DNA of 64,000 nt, taken from an uncultured delta proteobacterium (lineage in GTDB: Bacteria > Desulfobacterota > Binatia > UBA9968). The translations under genes and the position numbers were made by a program. Location: assembly GCA_963840855.1 (NCBI GenBank), contig CAWJBB010000062.1, positions 97,261-161,260 of the forward strand, given 5' to 3'. How positions within the stretch are numbered: position 1 is the stretch's first letter; every line of letters starts with the position of its first letter. The notes beneath the pieces are model-generated. The model was not told the origin of the DNA and did not search any database. It worked only from the letters and a program-made list of their open reading frames with translations. Of this stretch, positions 22,535 to 44,957 are shown piece after piece.

Positions 22535-23551
22535 TCAATCCCAGCGTTTGTCGCCTTTAAGCCGGCCTCCCACCTTGGCGAGCGCCGCTTCGATGATCGA
22601 CAGATCGACGAGTTTATCGTAGGTCGGTTTTTCTTGAGCTTTGATGGTTCCCAATTCTACTTGACGGTTGATGGTCCACTCGACCATGTCCTTCGGGAGA
22701 CCGTCGTTGACCGGCCACGCGCCGGCATTCGCGAGAATATCGTAAGTTTGCCCCACCGCGTCGGCGTCCTGCTGAGTGTATTTGACGGCGATCTCCACCG
22801 TCTTGGCCTTATTGTTGTAAATAAAGCGATTCGCTTTAACCAGCGCTGTCATGATGTCGACGTAAAGTTGACGGTTTTCTTTGATCTCTTTTTCGGGAGC
22901 GATATACGCCGCGTAAAGCCATTTCGGCAGCGGTTCCCAGAGATTGACGAGAATATTGAGATCGGGTTTTTTCTTTTTGGCGACGATCGCTTGATCGACG
23001 TGAAGAATGGCGGTATCGATCTGTCCGCTGAGCAATCCGGCCACACGCCCTTTGGTGCTCACCGGCACATACTCCACGTCCTTCTGTGTTAGACCGCAAC
23101 TCGCCATCACGGCACGGCTCATGACTTCATTGAATGCGCCAACTTCCTGAATGCCGATCTTGCGGCCTTTGAGTTCTTTGCAGCTTTTGATGTCGCCCTG
23201 CACCAGCATCGATTGAGAGAGCTTGTGCGAATAGGTGCCGAGCACCTTGGTGCCTGCGCCGCGCGCGGCGGCGATGATCGCCGGATCGGAACTTGTCCCG
23301 GTGATATCGAGCCCGCCGGCGACACTGCCTCTTAACGTCTGCGTGCCGCCCTCGAAGGTCACTAACTCGACGTCGATGTTAGACTCGCCGAAGAATCCCA
23401 TCTCTTTGGCGATATAGGGCGGCAAGTGCACCACGTTGGGCGGCGTAACCGGCACACCGAAAACGATTTTACGCTTGGTCTGCGTCTCGCCCGCTTGCAA
23501 GCCCAGGGTCAAACTAATCGACGCCACGAGAAGGCAAACGATCTTTTTCAT
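22535..23551 (-). CDS. ABC transporter substrate-binding protein (NitT/TauT/SsuA family)
   Basis: Signal peptide MKKIVCLL, AKEMGFF, ELKGRKIG, LLSGQID. Confidence 0.88.
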   Translation of the reverse strand: MKKIVCLLVASISLTLGLQAGETQTKRKIVFGVPVTPPNVVHLPPYIAKEMGFFGESNIDVELVTFEGGTQTLRGSVAGGLDITGTSSDPAIIAAARGAGTKVLGTYSHKLSQSMLVQGDIKSCKELKGRKIGIQEVGAFNEVMSRAVMASCGLTQKDVEYVPVSTKGRVAGLLSGQIDTAILHVDQAIVAKKKKPDLNILVNLWEPLPKWLYAAYIAPEKEIKENRQLYVDIMTALVKANRFIYNNKAKTVEIAVKYTQQDADAVGQTYDILANAGAWPVNDGLPKDMVEWTINRQVELGTIKAQEKPTYDKLVDLSIIEAALAKVGGRLKGDKRWD

Positions 23552-38134: not shown

Positions 38135-40651
38135 CTAGAGAACTTCCGCGGCGGGGCGATTCCCTGTGCGCGCGTCGCCGGATAAATCATTAAGCAGCTT
38201 GGCAATGGCCTGATAATTGACCGGCTTGGTCAAATGTACGTCGAAGCCCGCTTCTTTGGTACGGCGACGGTCTTGTTGTTGACCCCAGCCCGTCAAAGCG
38301 ATCAAAATCACATTCTTGCCCCAGGGCTGTTGGCGGATCTTGCTCGCCGCTTCGTAGCCATTTAATTTCGGCATTGCAATATCGAGAAGCACAATATCAG
38401 GGTGAAATTGCGCCGCGGTATCGACGGCTTCAAGACCATCTAGGGCGACCCGCACATCGTTGCCGTCCTGTCGCAGCAGGCGGGCGAGCAGCTGCGCCGA
38501 TTCTGGAAAGTCATCGGCGACCAATACCCGGCGCTGTCCCGTGGCCTGCGGCTTGGCGCTGTAGATTCGTTCGACATCAGGGGACGCCGGCGACGGCCTG
38601 CCGATCACCGGAAGTCGCACAATAAACTCGCTGCCTTGGTTAAGCCCAGCGCTTTCCACTGCAACGGAGCCGCCGTGTATCGCCACCAATCGGTTTACCA
38701 GCGTAAGCCCCAGCCCGAGCCCTCCCTCAGACCGGGCGAAAGATCGATCCGCCTGAAAAAACAGGTCAAAAACCCGGTTCAAATCTTCCGCGGCGATGCC
38801 AATGCCGGTGTCTGTGACCCTTATACAAATCTCATCGCCGTCACACTCGACTGAGAGACCGATGCGGCCTGACCTCGGGGTGTACTTGGCGGCATTGTTG
38901 AGCAGGTTCATGATCGCTTGGGTCAGCCGGATTTTATCACCGGACAGATACACCGGCTCCGTCGGCATGTTAAGCGTAAATATATGCCCGCGCTCGTTCA
39001 TCAGAGGTCGGCACGATTCCACGGCCCCATTAATGATCTCGGAGAGGTGCAGGTCTTCCTTGCGCAGCTCGAGTTTATCACGGGTAATCCGGCTTACGTC
39101 GAAAAGATCATCCGTCAAGCGGGTCAGATAATTTACCTGCCTATCGATGATGTCCCGGCCCCACCCGATCTCGGCATCCGTCGCCGCCGGCGACTGTAGC
39201 AGACTCACAACGTTGCGGATCAGGCCCAAAGGATTTCTCAGTTCGTGGGCCAAAGTGGCCAGGAATTCGTCTTTGCGGCGGTCGGCTTCACGCAATGCCA
39301 TCCCGCTCTGCCGCAGAGCATGATCGAGACGAAGCCGTTCCGCGGCCAGCCAGGTGCGTTCGGCCACGGCGCCGACCAATGCTACCTGCCGTTCGCTCCA
39401 CTGGCGCGGTTCTGGCGCCGCGAGAAACAGACAGGACGCCAATCGTCCATCTCGGAGCAGCGGAGCGACGATTAAAGCCCGGATGCCCGCCTGGTCGAAG
39501 CCATTGCCGTCGAGCGCGGCGCGTTCATCGCCCGTGGCATCATTGACAACAATCGTTCTTCCCGCCTTTCCGTCGTCAACAATGGCCGCGCCAAATTGTT
39601 TGAGAGGGTAGGTGCCTGCCAGCGACCGCGCGTGGCGGCGGTAGTCGCGTTGTACCACGAGCCGGTCGTGTTCAATATCGATTTCCGCGAAGCCGCAGCG
39701 GCCCGCGCGGAGGTGCTCCCCAAGAGCTACGGCAATGGCCCACATCATCTCATCTGGATCGGTGGCGACCCTAATGCACTCGCCGACATCAAGCAAAAAC
39801 ATAGTATCGGCTTCGGCTTGTTTGCGGTCGGTGATATCCCGGACCGCGACATTGACGCCCATCACCGCGCCGTTTTCATCTCTGACCGGGTGATAGCTGG
39901 CCAACCAGTGGCGCTTTTCATTGGGGCGGGCAACCGTGGCGCCCTCAACTTCCACGTCAAGTACCGGCCTCCCTGTATTGATGACGCGCCGGTAATGTTC
40001 CTCACCCGCGTCGGCCATGTCCGGCGTGGCTTCACGCACCGTCTTGCCGAGATAAAAATCCGGCGGATGGCCGTGCATTTCCGCGAGGGTATTGTTCATT
40101 GCCAAATAACGGAGATCGCGATCGACAAAACAGAGACCCACAGGGGCCGACGCGTAAGTGGTTCTCAGCTGCGCCAGGCGCCCGTAAGCGACACGCTCGC
40201 TCGATCGCAACGCTTCCACGTCGCGCGTGTGGCGCAGTGCCACAACGGCAACCGTCCAAATCACGATCACGGACAAGCTGTGATTAAGGACGCGCAACCA
40301 TTCGGGCGCTCCGGCAACCGCCGGCGCAAGAACGTAATCAGGAATCGCCAATAATGTGCAGGTTACCGCGACCAGGAATTTATCGCGGCGCCGGGGTAGA
40401 GCGACCACGAACAATAAGGCCGCGACATAGTACATCGGTATCGCCAGGTCGATTGGGACCCAGACATCGGCCAGGAAAAGCGCGACCACAAGCAGGGCTG
40501 GCAAGAAGCGAAAGGACGACGCAGCAAATCGAGACATTGCTTTCAGTGAGGGCATGCTCATTCGATTCGTTGTCGGCATGAAATTCATCAACACGTCCGC
40601 TATTTTGTAAGGTAACCGGGGCAGTTTCTTTGAGAGTGCACACTGTACCAA
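38135..40651 (-). CDS. Membrane-bound hybrid histidine kinase (TM-PAS-GAF-HisKA-HATPase-REC); true start probably downstream of 40651
   Basis: FLATLAHELRNPL, NLLNNAAKYT, DTGIG, GLGLGL, receiver LLDIAMP and HLTKP. Confidence 0.92.
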   Translation of the reverse strand: MVQCALSKKLPRLPYKIADVLMNFMPTTNRMSMPSLKAMSRFAASSFRFLPALLVVALFLADVWVPIDLAIPMYYVAALLFVVALPRRRDKFLVAVTCTLLAIPDYVLAPAVAGAPEWLRVLNHSLSVIVIWTVAVVALRHTRDVEALRSSERVAYGRLAQLRTTYASAPVGLCFVDRDLRYLAMNNTLAEMHGHPPDFYLGKTVREATPDMADAGEEHYRRVINTGRPVLDVEVEGATVARPNEKRHWLASYHPVRDENGAVMGVNVAVRDITDRKQAEADTMFLLDVGECIRVATDPDEMMWAIAVALGEHLRAGRCGFAEIDIEHDRLVVQRDYRRHARSLAGTYPLKQFGAAIVDDGKAGRTIVVNDATGDERAALDGNGFDQAGIRALIVAPLLRDGRLASCLFLAAPEPRQWSERQVALVGAVAERTWLAAERLRLDHALRQSGMALREADRRKDEFLATLAHELRNPLGLIRNVVSLLQSPAATDAEIGWGRDIIDRQVNYLTRLTDDLFDVSRITRDKLELRKEDLHLSEIINGAVESCRPLMNERGHIFTLNMPTEPVYLSGDKIRLTQAIMNLLNNAAKYTPRSGRIGLSVECDGDEICIRVTDTGIGIAAEDLNRVFDLFFQADRSFARSEGGLGLGLTLVNRLVAIHGGSVAVESAGLNQGSEFIVRLPVIGRPSPASPDVERIYSAKPQATGQRRVLVADDFPESAQLLARLLRQDGNDVRVALDGLEAVDTAAQFHPDIVLLDIAMPKLNGYEAASKIRQQPWGKNVILIALTGWGQQQDRRRTKEAGFDVHLTKPVNYQAIAKLLNDLSGDARTGNRPAAEVL

Positions 40652-41027: not shown

Positions 41028-42623
41028 ATGGCGAGCAACAAGTACTATCGCGATTTTCGCGAACATCTTAAGGCCGTCGAAGAGCGCGGTAAGTTAATCC
41101 GCATCCAGCGTGAGATTAATAAAGACACCGAGCTCATGCCATTGGTACGCTGGCAGTTTCGCGGCCTCGACGAGACTCAGCGCAAGGCGTTTATGTTTGA
41201 AAACGTCGTGGACGGCAAGGGCAAACGCTACGATATGCCGGTAACGGTCGGGACTTTGGCTGCGACCACGGAGATTTATGCCATCGGGATGATGTGCAAT
41301 CCAGACGAGATCCACGAGCGCTGGACCCAGGCGCAGATGAATCCGGTGAATCCTGTCAAAGTAAGCGCCGGACCGGCACAGGAATTCGTGCGACAGGGTC
41401 GAGACTTATTGAGCGGTCATGGTCTCGACATGATCCCCGTGCCAATTTCCACGCCAGGGTTCGACAACGCGCCCTATTTGACATCGGCCAATTGGATTAC
41501 CAAAGACCCGGAAACCGGCATCTACAATATTGGCAACTATCGCAGCCAGATAAAAGCGCCGGACCGCGCCGGCGGTTTCTTTATGGCACAACATATGGGG
41601 CTGCATTGGCGCAAGTGCAAGGCGATGGGGAAGCCGCTGGAAGCCGTTATCGCCATCGGGGTGAGTCCGAATATCGCCTACGCGGCGACGGCAAAGATTC
41701 CCTTCGATTTCGACGAGTACCGGCTCGCGGGCGGTTTGGCCGGCGCGCCGGTGGAGGTCACGCCAGCCAAGACCGTCGACTTGCTGGTTCCGGCCACGGC
41801 GGAGATCATTATTGAGGGGAGCATCCCAACGGATTCTATCGAACCGGAAGGCCCCTTCGGCGAGTATCCAGGCTACATGGGACACCGCAGCGTTTCACCC
41901 TATTTACAGGTGAGCTGTATCACGCACCGGAACGGCGCGATCTATACCGCGCTCATGAGTCAGTTTCCGCCCAGCGAGTCGAGCAAAATCAAACATACGG
42001 GCACGGAAAAAATCATCTACAAGTTTTTACGCCACGATAGCGGCAACTCGGCGGTCATTGACGTCGCGCTCCATGACGAAGTGAGCGGCAGCGGCCAGAA
42101 CTATTGTGTTATCAAAATGCGCAATGCGACCAAGGCCGACGCCTGGCGAGCATTGAATGCCAGCGCCGGTTTTACTGGAAGCTACGCCAAGATCTGCGTG
42201 GCGGTGGATGAAGATATAGACATTCGCGATCCCGCGATGGTCAACTGGGCGATTTGTTTTAACGTGCGCCCTGACGAAGACGTATCAATTGCCAAAGGAA
42301 AATCGCCAGGTCTAGACCCGTCGTCGCACCCGCCGGGGATGGACAGCCTTCAGGCGCGCATGACGTCGGTCAGCGCGTTATTGATCAATGCCGTCCGCCC
42401 TTGGCCCTATACGCCGGTGTCGTTGCCGCGCAAAGAATTCATGGAGCGGTCCAAGAAGATTTGGGAAGAACTGGAACTGCCGCCGCTCCAGCCGCGCATG
42501 CCCTGGTACGGCTACAGCCTTGGCGCGTGGACAGAAGAAGACGAAGCAGAAGCCAGTCTCGCGGTCAAAAGCGAATATTTCGTAACCGGCAAGAAACAGA
42601 CGGGACAGCGACAGAAGCCCTAA
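41028..42623 (+). CDS. UbiD family (prFMN-dependent) decarboxylase
   Basis: DFREHL, NIGNYR, EGPFGEYPGY, VDEDID. Confidence 0.92.
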   Translation: MASNKYYRDFREHLKAVEERGKLIRIQREINKDTELMPLVRWQFRGLDETQRKAFMFENVVDGKGKRYDMPVTVGTLAATTEIYAIGMMCNPDEIHERWTQAQMNPVNPVKVSAGPAQEFVRQGRDLLSGHGLDMIPVPISTPGFDNAPYLTSANWITKDPETGIYNIGNYRSQIKAPDRAGGFFMAQHMGLHWRKCKAMGKPLEAVIAIGVSPNIAYAATAKIPFDFDEYRLAGGLAGAPVEVTPAKTVDLLVPATAEIIIEGSIPTDSIEPEGPFGEYPGYMGHRSVSPYLQVSCITHRNGAIYTALMSQFPPSESSKIKHTGTEKIIYKFLRHDSGNSAVIDVALHDEVSGSGQNYCVIKMRNATKADAWRALNASAGFTGSYAKICVAVDEDIDIRDPAMVNWAICFNVRPDEDVSIAKGKSPGLDPSSHPPGMDSLQARMTSVSALLINAVRPWPYTPVSLPRKEFMERSKKIWEELELPPLQPRMPWYGYSLGAWTEEDEAEASLAVKSEYFVTGKKQTGQRQKP

Positions 42624-42628
42624 TATAG

Positions 42629-42713
42629 TTCAAGGTTCAATGTTCAAGGTTCAAAGTCAGGGATTGTGCTTATGCGGTTCTTAAATCTCCTCCGAATACC
42701 TTGAACATTGAAC
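42629..42713. repeat. Inverted heptamer arrays (GTTCAAG)n ... (TTGAAC)n
   Basis: gttcaaggttcaatgttcaaggttcaaag ... cttgaacattgaac. Confidence 0.7.
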
Positions 42714-42800
42714 GGGTTGGAAGGCAAAGCAGCCCAGTTATTCGCTCGTCGCCCGCAGGTTCAAGTTATTGCGCACACCGGAAAACACCTTTCTTTAACC

Positions 42801-43553
42801 ATGTCTTTCGATCGCACCCAGCTACTCGTCGGCGCCGCGCTATTGTTCGCCGCATTCGTCAAAGGGGTGACGGGGTTGGGATTTCCACTGATCGCGACGC
42901 CCATGGTGGCGCTCCTGCTGGATATTCGCACAGCGGTCACGATTCTCATTCTGCCAAACCTTCTTATGGATTCGGCTCAAGTTATCCGCGGCGGGTTTCC
43001 TTATGACGTCTTCCGGCGCTTCGCAGGATTGATTGCGCCAACCATTATCGGTGTTTTTCTGGGCACCATGGTTCTCGTCAAGCTGCCGCTGTGGATGCTT
43101 AATTTTTGTCTCGGCGTACTGGTTGTGGTTTTCGTGTTCTCCAGCGCGCTGAGATTTGATTTCACGATTTCACCCCGCGCGGAGAAAATTCTTGGGCCGG
43201 TGTGCGGCTTCATTAGCGGCATTCTCAACGGCATGACCAACGCCGCCGGGCCCGCTCTAGCGATATATCTCTACAGCCTCAAGCTTGAGAAGCGGACTTT
43301 CGTGAAATCCATTTCGACCATCTTCGTTACGACGAAAATCACCCAATTGGTTGCCATCTCGACCTGGAACCTTTTAAACTGGCACACGATCACCCTATCG
43401 ATTCAAGTATCATTGTTTACCTTGGCGGGGTTCTATGCGGGAATGAAGATCCAGGACCGCGTCAACCAGCAAACGTTCAATCGCGGATTGACGGTGCTGT
43501 TATTGCTAATCGGTGTGATCCTCATTTGGCGGGCGGTCACGCAGAACGGCTGA
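42801..43553 (+). CDS. TauE/SafE family membrane exporter
   Basis: VKGVTGLGF..P, SGILNG...AGP, about eight hydrophobic segments. Confidence 0.88.
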   Translation: MSFDRTQLLVGAALLFAAFVKGVTGLGFPLIATPMVALLLDIRTAVTILILPNLLMDSAQVIRGGFPYDVFRRFAGLIAPTIIGVFLGTMVLVKLPLWMLNFCLGVLVVVFVFSSALRFDFTISPRAEKILGPVCGFISGILNGMTNAAGPALAIYLYSLKLEKRTFVKSISTIFVTTKITQLVAISTWNLLNWHTITLSIQVSLFTLAGFYAGMKIQDRVNQQTFNRGLTVLLLLIGVILIWRAVTQNG

Positions 43554-43563
43554 CCCCCAACCG

Positions 43564-44667
43564 CTATCCCCAAAGCGCTTGCACCGTGCTAACCAGGAGT
43601 TGCAATTTTCGCCGTTGATCTTCGGTGGCGATTCGGTTGCCGATAATCGAAGATGCAAAGCCGCATTGGGGGCTGAGCCCCAACCTTTCTATGGGAACGT
43701 ATTGTTTGGCTTCGATTACGCGCTGCTTTAAGAATTCCGACGATTCGAGTTGCGACCTTTTTGTCGTTATCAGTCCAAGCACAACGAACTTATCGTCTGG
43801 CAAGTCGCGGAGCGGTTCATAGGAGCCGGAGCGGGCGTCGTCATACTCCAGTAACAGCCTTTGCGCCTTTAGCTTTTGAAAGAGTTGGCGGCTGATCGCC
43901 TCATACCCTCCCGCCGACAGCCACCGGCTGCCTTGATTGCCGCGTCAGATGTGAAATCCAAATGTTACGCTCGGAAAACCGCTCATCACGGCATTATCCA
44001 GGTCAATTCCTAGTGACAACCATTGATCAATGCTCCAGCCTTGGTTTTCATAGAACCTTCGGGTCTGGGGAGCGAGCAGAAGGCCGTAGTGCGGCGCATC
44101 GATTTGAACGTAACTGGCTCCGAACCGGGCGAGTTCCGCCACTTCGTCGCGCAGGATTTGCACGATGTCGGCAAAAAGGCTCTCGAGTGTCGGATAAGCT
44201 CCTTTGGAATATTCCGCGGACCAAAAGTTGGCCCACAGACCGGGGCTGGGCAGCGTGAGCTTTGGGATGCGTTTGGTTTTGGACTTCAGGTAAACGAATT
44301 CATCAACGGACAAATATCGTTGGCGCTTGAGTTTACTGACAACGCCCAGTCGCGATGGCCGGGATGTGCGGTGAACTCCTTCATCATCATGCCAGTCGCC
44401 CCAAAGAAAGGCATCGAGATCGTGGTCGCCGAAGCCGTCCACCGCGGCGGTCATTTGGCTCTGAAAGGACTGTCGCCGCATCTCCCCGTCAGTCACGACT
44501 TCTAAACCGACGCTCTCTTGCAGCGCGATGGCGTCGTCGACGGCGCGATCTTCGATTGCTTTGAATCGGTCCTGACTGATGACTCCGGCGGCGAGTTGTT
44601 TTTGAGCTGCCAGCAGCTCCGGAGGCCGAAGCAGGCTGCCGATGATATCAGCGTGAACTGAGAGCAT
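43564..44667 (-). CDS. Cobalamin-independent methionine synthase II (MetE C-terminal-like) family protein, 367 aa with in-frame TGA at codon 241; candidate selenoprotein
   Basis: IGSLLRP, TDGEMRR, VQIDAP, FHI*RGN, LEYD, VLGLITTK, LSPQCGFAS all in one frame; ORFs 43945..44667 and 43564..43803 join with no frameshift. Confidence 0.9.
43916..43932 (-). promoter_or_regulatory. Candidate bacterial SECIS hairpin
   Basis: GGCAGCC-GGU-GGCUGUC stem-loop starting 12 nt after the UGA; loop begins with G, 19 nt from the UGA. Confidence 0.6.
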
Positions 44668-44957
44668 ATTCTCTTACTCAGTGATCGCGTGACTACAACA
44701 GGAACCAAAGCCAAAGATCAGCTCGAAACTAGGCCAGTCCGATACTAAACTCAACCGATTTGCTTGGCAATTTGACTCCCCATTCCCGTATTCCCTTTTG
44801 ACGTTTTGTTCGGCCCGACCACAATCCCGACCGCCGCGAATGCCTCCCCGGGATTCGATCGCCGTTCCCTCTTTTCCCCATTGACTGTACCCTCGCAGCT
44901 ACGTTAACGTCAGCCGTTAATTAGGACCCGAAGGCTCGGCGCTATTGAAATGCGGCT

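Follow-up and report, generated by a model that had tools for sequence, protein, structure and literature searches.

A Probable Selenoprotein Family Related to Methionine Synthase with UGA at a Predicted Zinc-Ligand Position

An In-Frame UGA Codon in a MetE-Like Gene

Whether a gene that is apparently split by a stop codon is in fact read through, and which amino acid is inserted at the stop, is the question raised by a locus in a 64,000-nucleotide stretch of DNA (hereafter the window) from an uncultured soil bacterium of Candidatus Binatia. The window is located on contig C62 (CAWJBB010000062.1, positions 97,261 to 161,260) of the source assembly G000 (GCA_963840855.1), which comprises 7.1 Mb in 93 contigs and is 94% complete with 8% contamination. 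The gene, located on the minus strand, encodes a relative of the cobalamin-independent methionine synthase MetE and appears in the open reading frame (ORF) listing as a 240-aa ORF (43945..44667) and a 79-aa ORF (43564..43803) that share one frame. Our results indicate that its internal UGA very probably encodes selenocysteine (Sec, U) in a functional gene family. This conclusion is based on the conservation of the UGA, the pairing of cysteine (Cys) and Sec forms, purifying selection downstream of the codon, hairpin features specific for the Sec forms, and the Sec machinery of the lineage; from these, we infer the insertion of selenium. Over a hundred related genes carry the recoded UGA at one column, pointing to a selenoprotein family.

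Translation with table 11 starts at the ATG at 44667 and ends at the TAG at 43566..43564, the sole internal stop being the TGA at 43947..43945 in the context G-F-H-I-*-R-G-N. Reading this TGA as U yields a product of 367 residues, in which LLLEYDD (with E274) and SPQCGF (with C335) are both located downstream of the UGA. The first-pass annotation, made from the sequence alone, had described a gene split by a single in-frame TGA with both parts in one frame, and a read-through protein of 367 aa with intact LEYD and SPQCGF motifs; both statements were borne out by the translation.

43564..44667, minus strand: MetE-like coding sequence of 367 residues, including the UGA read as U, with the TAG stop inside the range (translation; PF01717; 1YPX match)
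43945..43947, minus strand: UGA codon 241, proposed selenocysteine, aligned to the first Cys of H-x-C (TGA in 30/30 orthologue loci; Cys homologues)

The site was checked in assembled contigs of public sequencing runs (Logan contigs). A 324-nt contig of the soil-metagenome run X1 covers 43733..44056 with 0 differences, TGA included, but adds little because X1 may be the source sample. A contig of run X5 also crosses the TGA site, and none of its listed differences falls there; since 18 of its differences are unlisted, this contig was not counted. For the RNA run X15, a single 264-nt contig (44460..44723) was found, which stops short of the UGA and does not demonstrate transcription of the whole gene.

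Conservation of the UGA in Relatives, Other Phyla, and Metagenomes

The scan of relatives comprised 61 genomes of the same order, the source genome included, two of which (G015 and G009) are flagged as unpublished. All matches of at least 60% identity that cover the column carry exactly one TGA (32 rows from 31 out of the 61 genomes). The holders are found in the family of the window (28 out of 37 genomes) and in a second family (3 out of 5), and in none of the 19 genomes of a third family. Without G015 and G009, the gene is held by 29 out of 59 genomes, and the column is TGA in 29/29 loci. One extra fragment of 80% identity spans residues 2-154 only. In the 30 orthologue loci that were fetched (Candidatus Binatia, 60-94% identity), TGA is present at the same column in 30/30 cases within the motif FH[ILV]-U-RGNQG[SG]RW, and none of them is split by a gap, an overlap, or a shift of frame.

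Diverged homologues sharing the TGA, which had been proposed as a check, were thus found within the order, and also in three other phyla. A scan with one genome per species, with phyla taken from the record title or group, gave 17 loci, 15 of them covering the column. TGA was present in 8 out of the 15, namely, in six Binatia-type loci (five of them already in the order set), one metagenome-assembled genome (MAG) of Acidobacteriota, and one Anaerolineae MAG. The remaining 7 out of 15 have TGC or TGT and belong to Latescibacterota, Blastocatellia, Chloroflexota, Promineifilaceae, and Gemmatimonadetes MAGs (58-65% identity). Within the phylum Acidobacteriota, an orthologue was detected in 4 out of 301 genomes (1 TGA, 3 Cys); in a Chloroflexota order, in 4 out of 39 (all Cys); and in a Latescibacterota class, in 10 out of 121 (3 TGA, 7 Cys), two of these TGA forms being located on megabase contigs.

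Cys at this column is also the rule among database proteins: the best 120 listed full-length proteins (63-73% identity, 367-409 aa) have Cys in 120/120 cases. As DNA, the Cys form is represented by 16 distinct regions in total, including the seven genome loci with TGC or TGT. The count of TGA versus TGC/TGT at the column, likewise suggested beforehand, yielded both forms.

Furthermore, metagenome contigs were collected with the pattern T-F-[GA]-x-H-x-TGA-R-G-N-Q, in which the TGA is present by construction and the hairpin described below is unconstrained. The pattern matched at least 119 contigs from soil and sediment, 80 of which were fetched. A later stop is contained in 72 of these 80, and 71 out of the 72 stay open for 115-133 codons past the TGA (58 of them for exactly 126). 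SPQCGF is intact in 65 and LEY[DE] in 68 out of the 72 contigs. The lone early closure is found in contig L120:129-233, 24 codons past the UGA, where the peptide becomes SSSG; this looks like a frameshift or assembly error.

The selection pressure on both sides of the codon was compared in 400 random pairs drawn from 93 distinct full-length Sec sequences. The median ratio of nonsynonymous to synonymous differences (pN/pS) was 0.27 in the part preceding the UGA and 0.30 in the part following it; pS was nearly saturated in both (0.73). Relaxed selection in the 3' part, as expected for a pseudogene, was therefore not seen, and the similar values indicate that the part after the UGA is translated and constrained.

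These data bear on two alternative explanations. That the TGA is an artefact of sequencing or assembly, or a nonsense mutation of recent date in a pseudogene, could be argued from the frame-breaking indels in selB and metH of the assembly and from three paralogues in the source and related genomes that have sporadic stops. Such an origin is extremely improbable, as the TGA recurs in 30/30 independent orthologue loci and in the 80 metagenome contigs, the sporadic paralogue stops are placed at three different non-catalytic columns, and the contig of run X1 crosses the site unchanged. Among the paralogues in the 61 genomes (36-43% identity), no stop was found apart from these three. They are TAG, TGA, and TAG in L025 (G000 C72), L218 (G018 C157), and L219 (G013 C663), respectively, and are probably errors or decay, in contrast to the conserved UGA. 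Pyrrolysine or another recoding of these stops was rejected, since three different non-conserved columns are affected.

The TGA could also be a true stop, in which case the cell would make a split enzyme: an N-terminal fragment of 240 residues, alone or alongside a C-terminal piece with its own start. The public gene calls hold exactly this product: 239-240 aa, in a cluster of 48 members named 'methyltransferase' (JGI) or 'hypothetical protein' (NCBI). Moreover, TGA is the commonest terminator of the genome, ending 693 out of 1718 long open frames. A split enzyme is, however, highly improbable. The next in-frame start leads to the 79-aa ORF from 43803, which is devoid of Glu274, so that neither piece has a complete zinc site. 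The frame stays open past the TGA in 71 out of 72 contigs under equal purifying selection and at saturated synonymous divergence, and the 30 loci are free of gaps, overlaps, and frame changes. The prevalence of TGA as terminator also implies a standard code; a genome-wide reassignment of TGA was rejected on this count and because a TGA terminates the neighboring TauE gene at the normal length.

A SECIS-Like Hairpin Downstream of the UGA

The first-pass annotation had placed the hairpin GGCAGCC-GGU-GGCUGUC, with a G at the start of a small apical loop, 12 nt past the UGA, and it was found there at 43932..43916. Its stem comprises seven pairs, one of which is G-U.

43933..43944, minus strand: 12-nt spacer from the UGA to the hairpin, codons R242-G243-N244-Q245, sequence CGCGGCAAUCAA (sequence)
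43916..43932, minus strand: proposed bacterial selenocysteine insertion sequence (SECIS) hairpin, codons G246-S247-R248-W249-L250-S251 (pairing in the Sec set; Sec-versus-Cys contrast; constraints of the bacterial SECIS model)
43932..43926, minus strand: hairpin 5' arm GGCAGCC (sequence)
43925..43923, minus strand: hairpin loop GGU (sequence)
43922..43916, minus strand: hairpin 3' arm GGCUGUC (sequence)

In the loop of E. coli fdhF, G-U is read by SelB. The published bacterial SECIS (bSECIS) model, as given in a 2026 review, has a loop of 3-9 nt starting with G[G/U], a stem of 4-16 bp, a distance of 16-37 nt between UGA and loop, and a minimum free energy (MFE) of ≤-7.5 kcal/mol (PMC13188914). 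With its GGU loop, 7 bp, 19 nt from the UGA, and -10.9 kcal/mol, the hairpin is within these constraints, and the SECIS-like character ascribed to it is supported by a G[G/U] loop start in 109/109 Sec regions (GGU in 98, GUU in 11).

On a single sequence, the hairpin is unremarkable; it is the comparison across sequences that lifts it above chance. With 105 distinct Sec-form regions aligned without gaps, 91.6% of the cells of the 7-bp helix are paired, and the inner four pairs are formed in 102-105 out of the 105 sequences. Pair 48:60, which joins the wobble positions of Gly246 and Leu250, is C-G in 79 sequences, A-U in 4, G-C in 2, G-U and U-G in 1 each, and unpaired in 18. Neither the covariation score nor the percentage of paired cells was matched by any of 500 shuffles, and the scores of slid registers were far lower, although related sequences can beat shuffles without any structure. 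The codons of the hairpin are constrained as well: G246, S247, and R248 have the lowest codon entropies in the gene. Among 101 conserved codons of at least four-fold degeneracy, R248 is second-lowest, G246 and S247 being lower still, but slightly below the conservation threshold. R248 is CGG in 81 out of 93 sequences, whereas other conserved Arg codons of these genes favor CGC.

Since the peptide G-S-R-W-L is conserved in Sec and Cys forms alike, the Cys forms represent the decisive control for the hairpin. In the 16 Cys regions, the loop is GCU in 9, GAU in 3, GGU in 3, and GUU in 1, so that GGU or GUU occurs in only 4 out of 16. Pair 47:61 is formed in 67% of the Sec versus 6% of the Cys regions, and pair 48:60 in 83% versus 56%. 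The mean energy of the 21-nt hairpin window is -10.8 kcal/mol for Sec and -7.4 kcal/mol for Cys regions, and values of ≤-7.5 kcal/mol are reached by 100 out of 109 Sec versus 7 out of 16 Cys regions.

Several observations count against a SECIS function of the hairpin. Two-sided compensation among the 105 Sec sequences amounts to eight cells in two pairs only, and RNAalifold alone, applied to the same sequences, gave three weak pairs with -1.11 kcal/mol. The single-sequence fold of 71 nt has a z-score of 0.01 against shuffles and chooses a different structure; it was not used as support (the 77-nt and 40-nt folds do contain the hairpin). The hairpin is short, most of it is dictated by the conserved peptide G-S-R-W-L, and the inner core of 4-5 bp is formed in all Cys as well as Sec regions. 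Finally, the tests for the Sec-versus-Cys contrast (Fisher, 7e-10, for the loop/stem comparison; Mann-Whitney, 3.5e-5, for the energy) are naive ones that ignore kinship and uneven sampling, the Sec set was gathered by a TGA-specific pattern, and the Cys set comprises 16 regions only. In the covariation check suggested for the hairpin, the pairing exceeded all shuffles, the two-sided compensation was limited, and the RNAalifold pairs were weak.

No match to Rfam was obtained in 43500..44700 at E up to 1; to our knowledge, Rfam has no general bacterial SECIS model. The selD gene of the same genome (contig C1, 37592-38518, locus L011) also has an in-frame TGA, in the context KAAG-U-AAKL, with GUGCAA-GUU-UUGCAC located 27 nt on. 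This element, a short stem capped by a G-U-U triloop, is similar to the hairpin of the MetE-like gene, as a single case.

Switching between Sec and Cys Forms

A quick FastTree phylogeny was calculated from 98 Sec and 74 Cys sequences with three paralogues as the outgroup. The Cys sequences comprised 15 from the loci together with the database proteins P0002-P0060. Not included were P0061-P0121, identical proteins, and loci whose coverage was not nearly full. Two Cys database proteins (73% and 71% identity) nest within the Binatia-type Sec clade. Parsimony on this tree gives 15 Sec/Cys changes, at least four of which are forced by well-supported branches alone. The sampling is biased, as the Sec forms were obtained via the TGA pattern and the Cys forms via a protein database. 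Given this bias and the quick tree, we claim only that, as judged from the phylogeny, switches happened more than once in the family.

Because the Cys forms already hold the core of the hairpin, the family may be predisposed to gain a working SECIS element. It looks 'SECIS-ready', in that the coding sequence for S-R-W-L already folds as a hairpin of 4-5 bp whose G-N-U loop is suitably spaced. To turn a Cys into a Sec form, little would be required other than TGY to TGA, a G or U at the wobble position of the Arg codon, and one or two added stem pairs. As so few changes would suffice, such a starting point would explain the repeated switches on the tree. The family also offers a clean case for the origin of a SECIS element inside a conserved coding sequence.

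Protein Family and Predicted Zinc Site

The MetE-like protein scores 57.6 bits against Pfam PF01717 (Meth_synt_2; gathering cut-off 21) over residues 9-339. Its closest solved relative is PDB 1YPX, a 375-aa structural-genomics protein, with E = 3.7e-45 for the single-sequence query and E = 2.8e-94 (319.5 bits, end-to-end alignment) for a profile of orthologues and paralogues. The short 'B12-independent methionine synthase' models of NCBIfam also gave end-to-end matches, which remained sub-threshold (PRK06520, subfamily, 239.7 versus 313 bits; PRK06233, equivalog, 217.5 versus 576 bits). The full-length MetE model TIGR01371 reached 42.9 bits versus a cut-off of 930, and at model positions 431-602 only, which places the protein outside canonical MetE.

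In the profile alignment, H239, U241, E274, and C335 align to chain positions H650, C652, E674, and C736 of Thermotoga maritima MetE. Chain and native numbering differ by a constant offset of 32, counted by hand from the printed alignment, and the zinc ligands of this enzyme are given as His618, Cys620, Glu642, and Cys704 by Pejchal and Ludwig (PMC539065). The UGA column hence corresponds to the zinc ligand Cys620.

43951..43953, minus strand: His239 codon, predicted zinc ligand (aligned to chain His650 = native His618; invariant in the family alignment)
43846..43848, minus strand: Glu274 codon, predicted zinc ligand, 3' of the UGA (aligned to chain Glu674 = native Glu642; invariant in the family alignment)
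43663..43665, minus strand: Cys335 codon (SPQCGF), predicted zinc ligand, 3' of the UGA (aligned to chain Cys736 = native Cys704; invariant in the family alignment)

Zinc binding of the family through HxC, a Glu, and a distal Cys, as stated in the first-pass annotation, agrees with this alignment, and its proposal that Sec is a direct zinc ligand in a thiol-activating alkyl- or methyltransferase gains support from the correspondence to Cys620. Provided that Sec is inserted, Sec241 is probably a zinc ligand. S11, E62, and D190 do not vary in the family alignment and align to the GS, GE, and ID-P (ID(E)P) motifs of MetE, whose Ser, Glu, and Asp are listed as homocysteine-binding by Price et al. 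(PMC7857596). Since Ser11, Glu62, and Asp190 are kept, homocysteine or a close analogue is the most likely substrate.

The nearest relatives in architecture are 1YPX and the YxjG/YxjH-type proteins of the 'cobalamin-independent methionine synthase II family', the name also given at NCBI to the nearest Cys-form database proteins. They, too, are approximately 370 aa long with one catalytic domain, and HxCRGN, LEYD, and SPQCGF are common to both; where the MetE-like gene has UGA, they have Cys. Canonical MetE shares the PF01717 catalytic fold, the four zinc ligands, and the homocysteine-holding Ser, Glu, and Asp with the MetE-like protein. However, it is approximately 750 aa long with an N-terminal folate-binding barrel, which the 367-aa protein does not have, and the latter contains approximately 11 extra residues between the H-x-C motif and the Glu ligand. 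The core methionine synthases MesA-MesD are also single-domain MetE relatives keeping the zinc and homocysteine residues, and use methyl donors other than methylfolate (Price et al. 2021, PMC7857596). An assignment to the MesD/MesX type was rejected: the MesD structure 3RPD scored 108.6 bits with the same profile, far below the 319.5 bits of 1YPX, and no match to the partner MesX (DUF1852, PF08908) was found in the genome, an absence that is weakly shown, as control genomes gave no match either.

According to the mechanism we propose, the UGA at codon 241 would be decoded as Sec by SelB and tRNA-Sec, guided by the in-gene hairpin located 12 nt past the codon. The product belongs to the family of 1YPX and B. 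subtilis YxjG; it corresponds to the catalytic half of MetE as a single core domain and is devoid of the folate-binding N-terminal domain. Sec241 would take the place of the first Cys in H-x-C and, together with His239, Glu274, and Cys335, bind the catalytic zinc, the selenolate standing in for one of its two thiolates. The zinc would then activate a thiol substrate for alkyl transfer. Two points weigh against a firm reading of this function: the role as zinc ligand is deduced from an alignment and not from a structure of the MetE-like selenoprotein itself, and, as no neighboring gene is kept across phyla, the genomic context is uninformative on the substrate or the methyl donor.

Candidate reasons for the use of Sec are tuning of the zinc site, tuning of substrate nucleophilicity, or oxidation resistance of the zinc thiolate; the choice among them is a guess. 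MetE of E. coli is sensitive to oxidation. In B. subtilis under hypochlorite stress, MetE (at its active-site Cys) and YxjG were described to be S-bacillithiolated, causing methionine auxotrophy (PMC4360819), which makes oxidation resistance a reasonable guess. In oxic soils, a selenolate could harden an oxidation-prone zinc-thiolate site; alternatively, it could itself accept the methyl group transiently.

Selenocysteine Machinery of the Lineage

In the source genome, selA (616 bits), selB, and the TGA-containing selD are located side by side on contig C1. Within the order, selA was detected in 57 out of 61 genomes, and it was also found in each of the five holders tested outside Binatia, of which three have the Cys form. 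tRNA-Sec was found in four out of five near-complete relatives with 74-77 bits and is nearly identical across two families. These tRNA-Sec genes (L194-L197 in G037, G041, G035, and G039) are 91 nt long with few differing positions between the two families of the order, and are located 10-16 kb from selA in three of the relatives' genomes.

Two findings in the source assembly speak against Sec decoding in this strain. First, one extra base (contig C1, ~39976-39989, loci L003/L004) divides selB into two frames, the sequence being GCGCCGCAACGG versus GCGCCG-AACGG in two genomes of the same genus at 96% identity. If real and not an assembly error, this 1-nt insertion would make the strain stop at the UGA. 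In 5/5 relatives tested, selB is intact with 645-706 codons open. The break reflects either an indel of the assembly or a genuine loss, in this strain, of the ability to decode Sec. metH (contig C74, 20942-24494), a further gene that looks essential, is broken at one point near 22965, model positions 1-675 and 671-1182 being matched in adjoining frames. As it is similarly split, assembly indel errors are a plausible cause of both breaks. Second, tRNA-Sec was not found in the 94%-complete assembly: ARAGORN predicted 39 tRNAs, none with the anticodon UCA, the best match to the Rfam tRNA-Sec model (43 bits, under the 47-bit threshold) coincides with a tRNA-Ser, and BLAST with the tRNA-Sec gene of the relatives gave no match. 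A search for selA, selB, selC, and selD had been suggested; selA, selD, and the frameshifted selB were recovered, selC was not, and relatives supply selA, selB, and tRNA-Sec.

These gaps are also what an alternative without selenium would draw on, namely, read-through of the UGA by a near-cognate or suppressor tRNA inserting Cys, Trp, or Arg, or by Cys on tRNA-Sec, with the hairpin merely slowing termination. Homologues function with Cys at this column, and the base 3' of the UGA is C in nearly all Sec sequences, UGA-C being a weak terminator. We consider this alternative very unlikely. The G[G/U]N loop and the longer stem are specific to the TGA forms and fit the SelB-type bSECIS model, selA accompanies the gene in the tested holders outside Binatia and is present in nearly the whole order, and the combination of Cys homologues with a TGA conserved at a catalytic Cys column represents the standard signature of Sec. 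Decoding of the UGA as Sec is thus the reading that we retain below.

Relation to Known Selenoproteins

More than 110 prokaryotic selenoprotein families are known and, according to the 2026 review, tabulated with Pfam and NCBIfam accessions (PMC13188914). The main text of this review contains no PF01717, MetE, homocysteine, or methionine synthase; supplementary tables, which were outside the search, could list the family. A MetE-like selenoprotein is likewise unnamed in the main texts of the deep-Sep paper, a 2022 review, and a preprint on code expansion in deltaproteobacteria, and 'methionine synthase' has 0 occurrences in the main texts of the selenoprotein papers on GOS, the Sargasso Sea, and the Olavius symbionts, and those of 2006 (Genome Biology) and 2016 (ISME J). 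Literature pairing selenoprotein with the names of the MetE-like family yielded nothing relevant, and among the matches listed for Binatota or Binatia with selenocysteine or selenoprotein, none had those taxon names. The word selenocysteine is absent from the main text of the MesA-MesD study (PMC7857596), as far as it was available, and NCBIfam release 20 has no selenoprotein-specific model for the family. The notion that the family is not among the known selenoproteins hence agrees with the literature searched, taken without supplements, and we lean towards regarding it as undescribed.

Most known bacterial selenoproteins are redox enzymes or carry Sec on redox metals. Formate dehydrogenase ligates its metal (Mo/W) through Sec, which replaces a Cys ligand, and Cys homologues exist. 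The same applies to Ni in [NiFeSe] hydrogenase, where Sec stands in place of a Cys metal ligand and Cys homologues exist, as here (PMC13582414). Both are redox enzymes with redox-active metals, whereas the MetE-like protein would use zinc for group transfer. Sec in methyl transfer is represented by the arsenite methyltransferase, the methylated-DNA-protein-cysteine methyltransferase, and MduS listed in the review; their folds, however, are unrelated, and Sec is not described as a zinc ligand in its available part (PMC13188914). We regard the MetE-like proteins as a probably new selenoprotein family that relies on the usual bacterial mode of recoding, its unusual point being the proposed Sec on a catalytic zinc. 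The chances are about even for a widespread, so far unlisted family of non-redox alkyl-transfer enzymes whose catalytic zinc is directly bound by Sec.

A zinc-bound selenolate in an enzyme of the methionine synthase type, if true, would provide a natural system for testing the tuning of a thiol-activating Lewis-acid zinc by selenium, and the natural Cys forms at 60-73% identity represent a matched comparison set. In addition, gene callers cut these genes at the UGA, which leaves both one-carbon and sulfur metabolism under-annotated in Binatia and in other soil lineages.

Neighboring Genes and Paralogues

Outside Binatia, no flanking ORF is common to the eight loci, except between the related L070 and L072. 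UbiD, SBP, PrpD, and GST neighbors showed no conserved association with the gene. A gene for a TauE/SafE-family membrane protein (window 42708-43553, plus strand) is convergent with the selenoprotein gene and ends 11 nt from its 3' end. This neighbor was found in 22 out of 29 Binatia orthologue loci (L029-L057) and in L062, and in 0 out of 9 loci from other phyla. In six loci, the TauE/SafE gene is preceded by a UbiD-like gene (41028-42623 in the window).

The source genome has MetH, no full-length MetE, and approximately ten short MetE-like paralogues, which is an unusual expansion of core MetE-like proteins. The paralogues (contigs C33, C41, C44, C72, C81, C87, C50, and C21; loci L022-L028) have 25-52% identity to the selenoprotein and, where checked, contain Cys in H-x-C.

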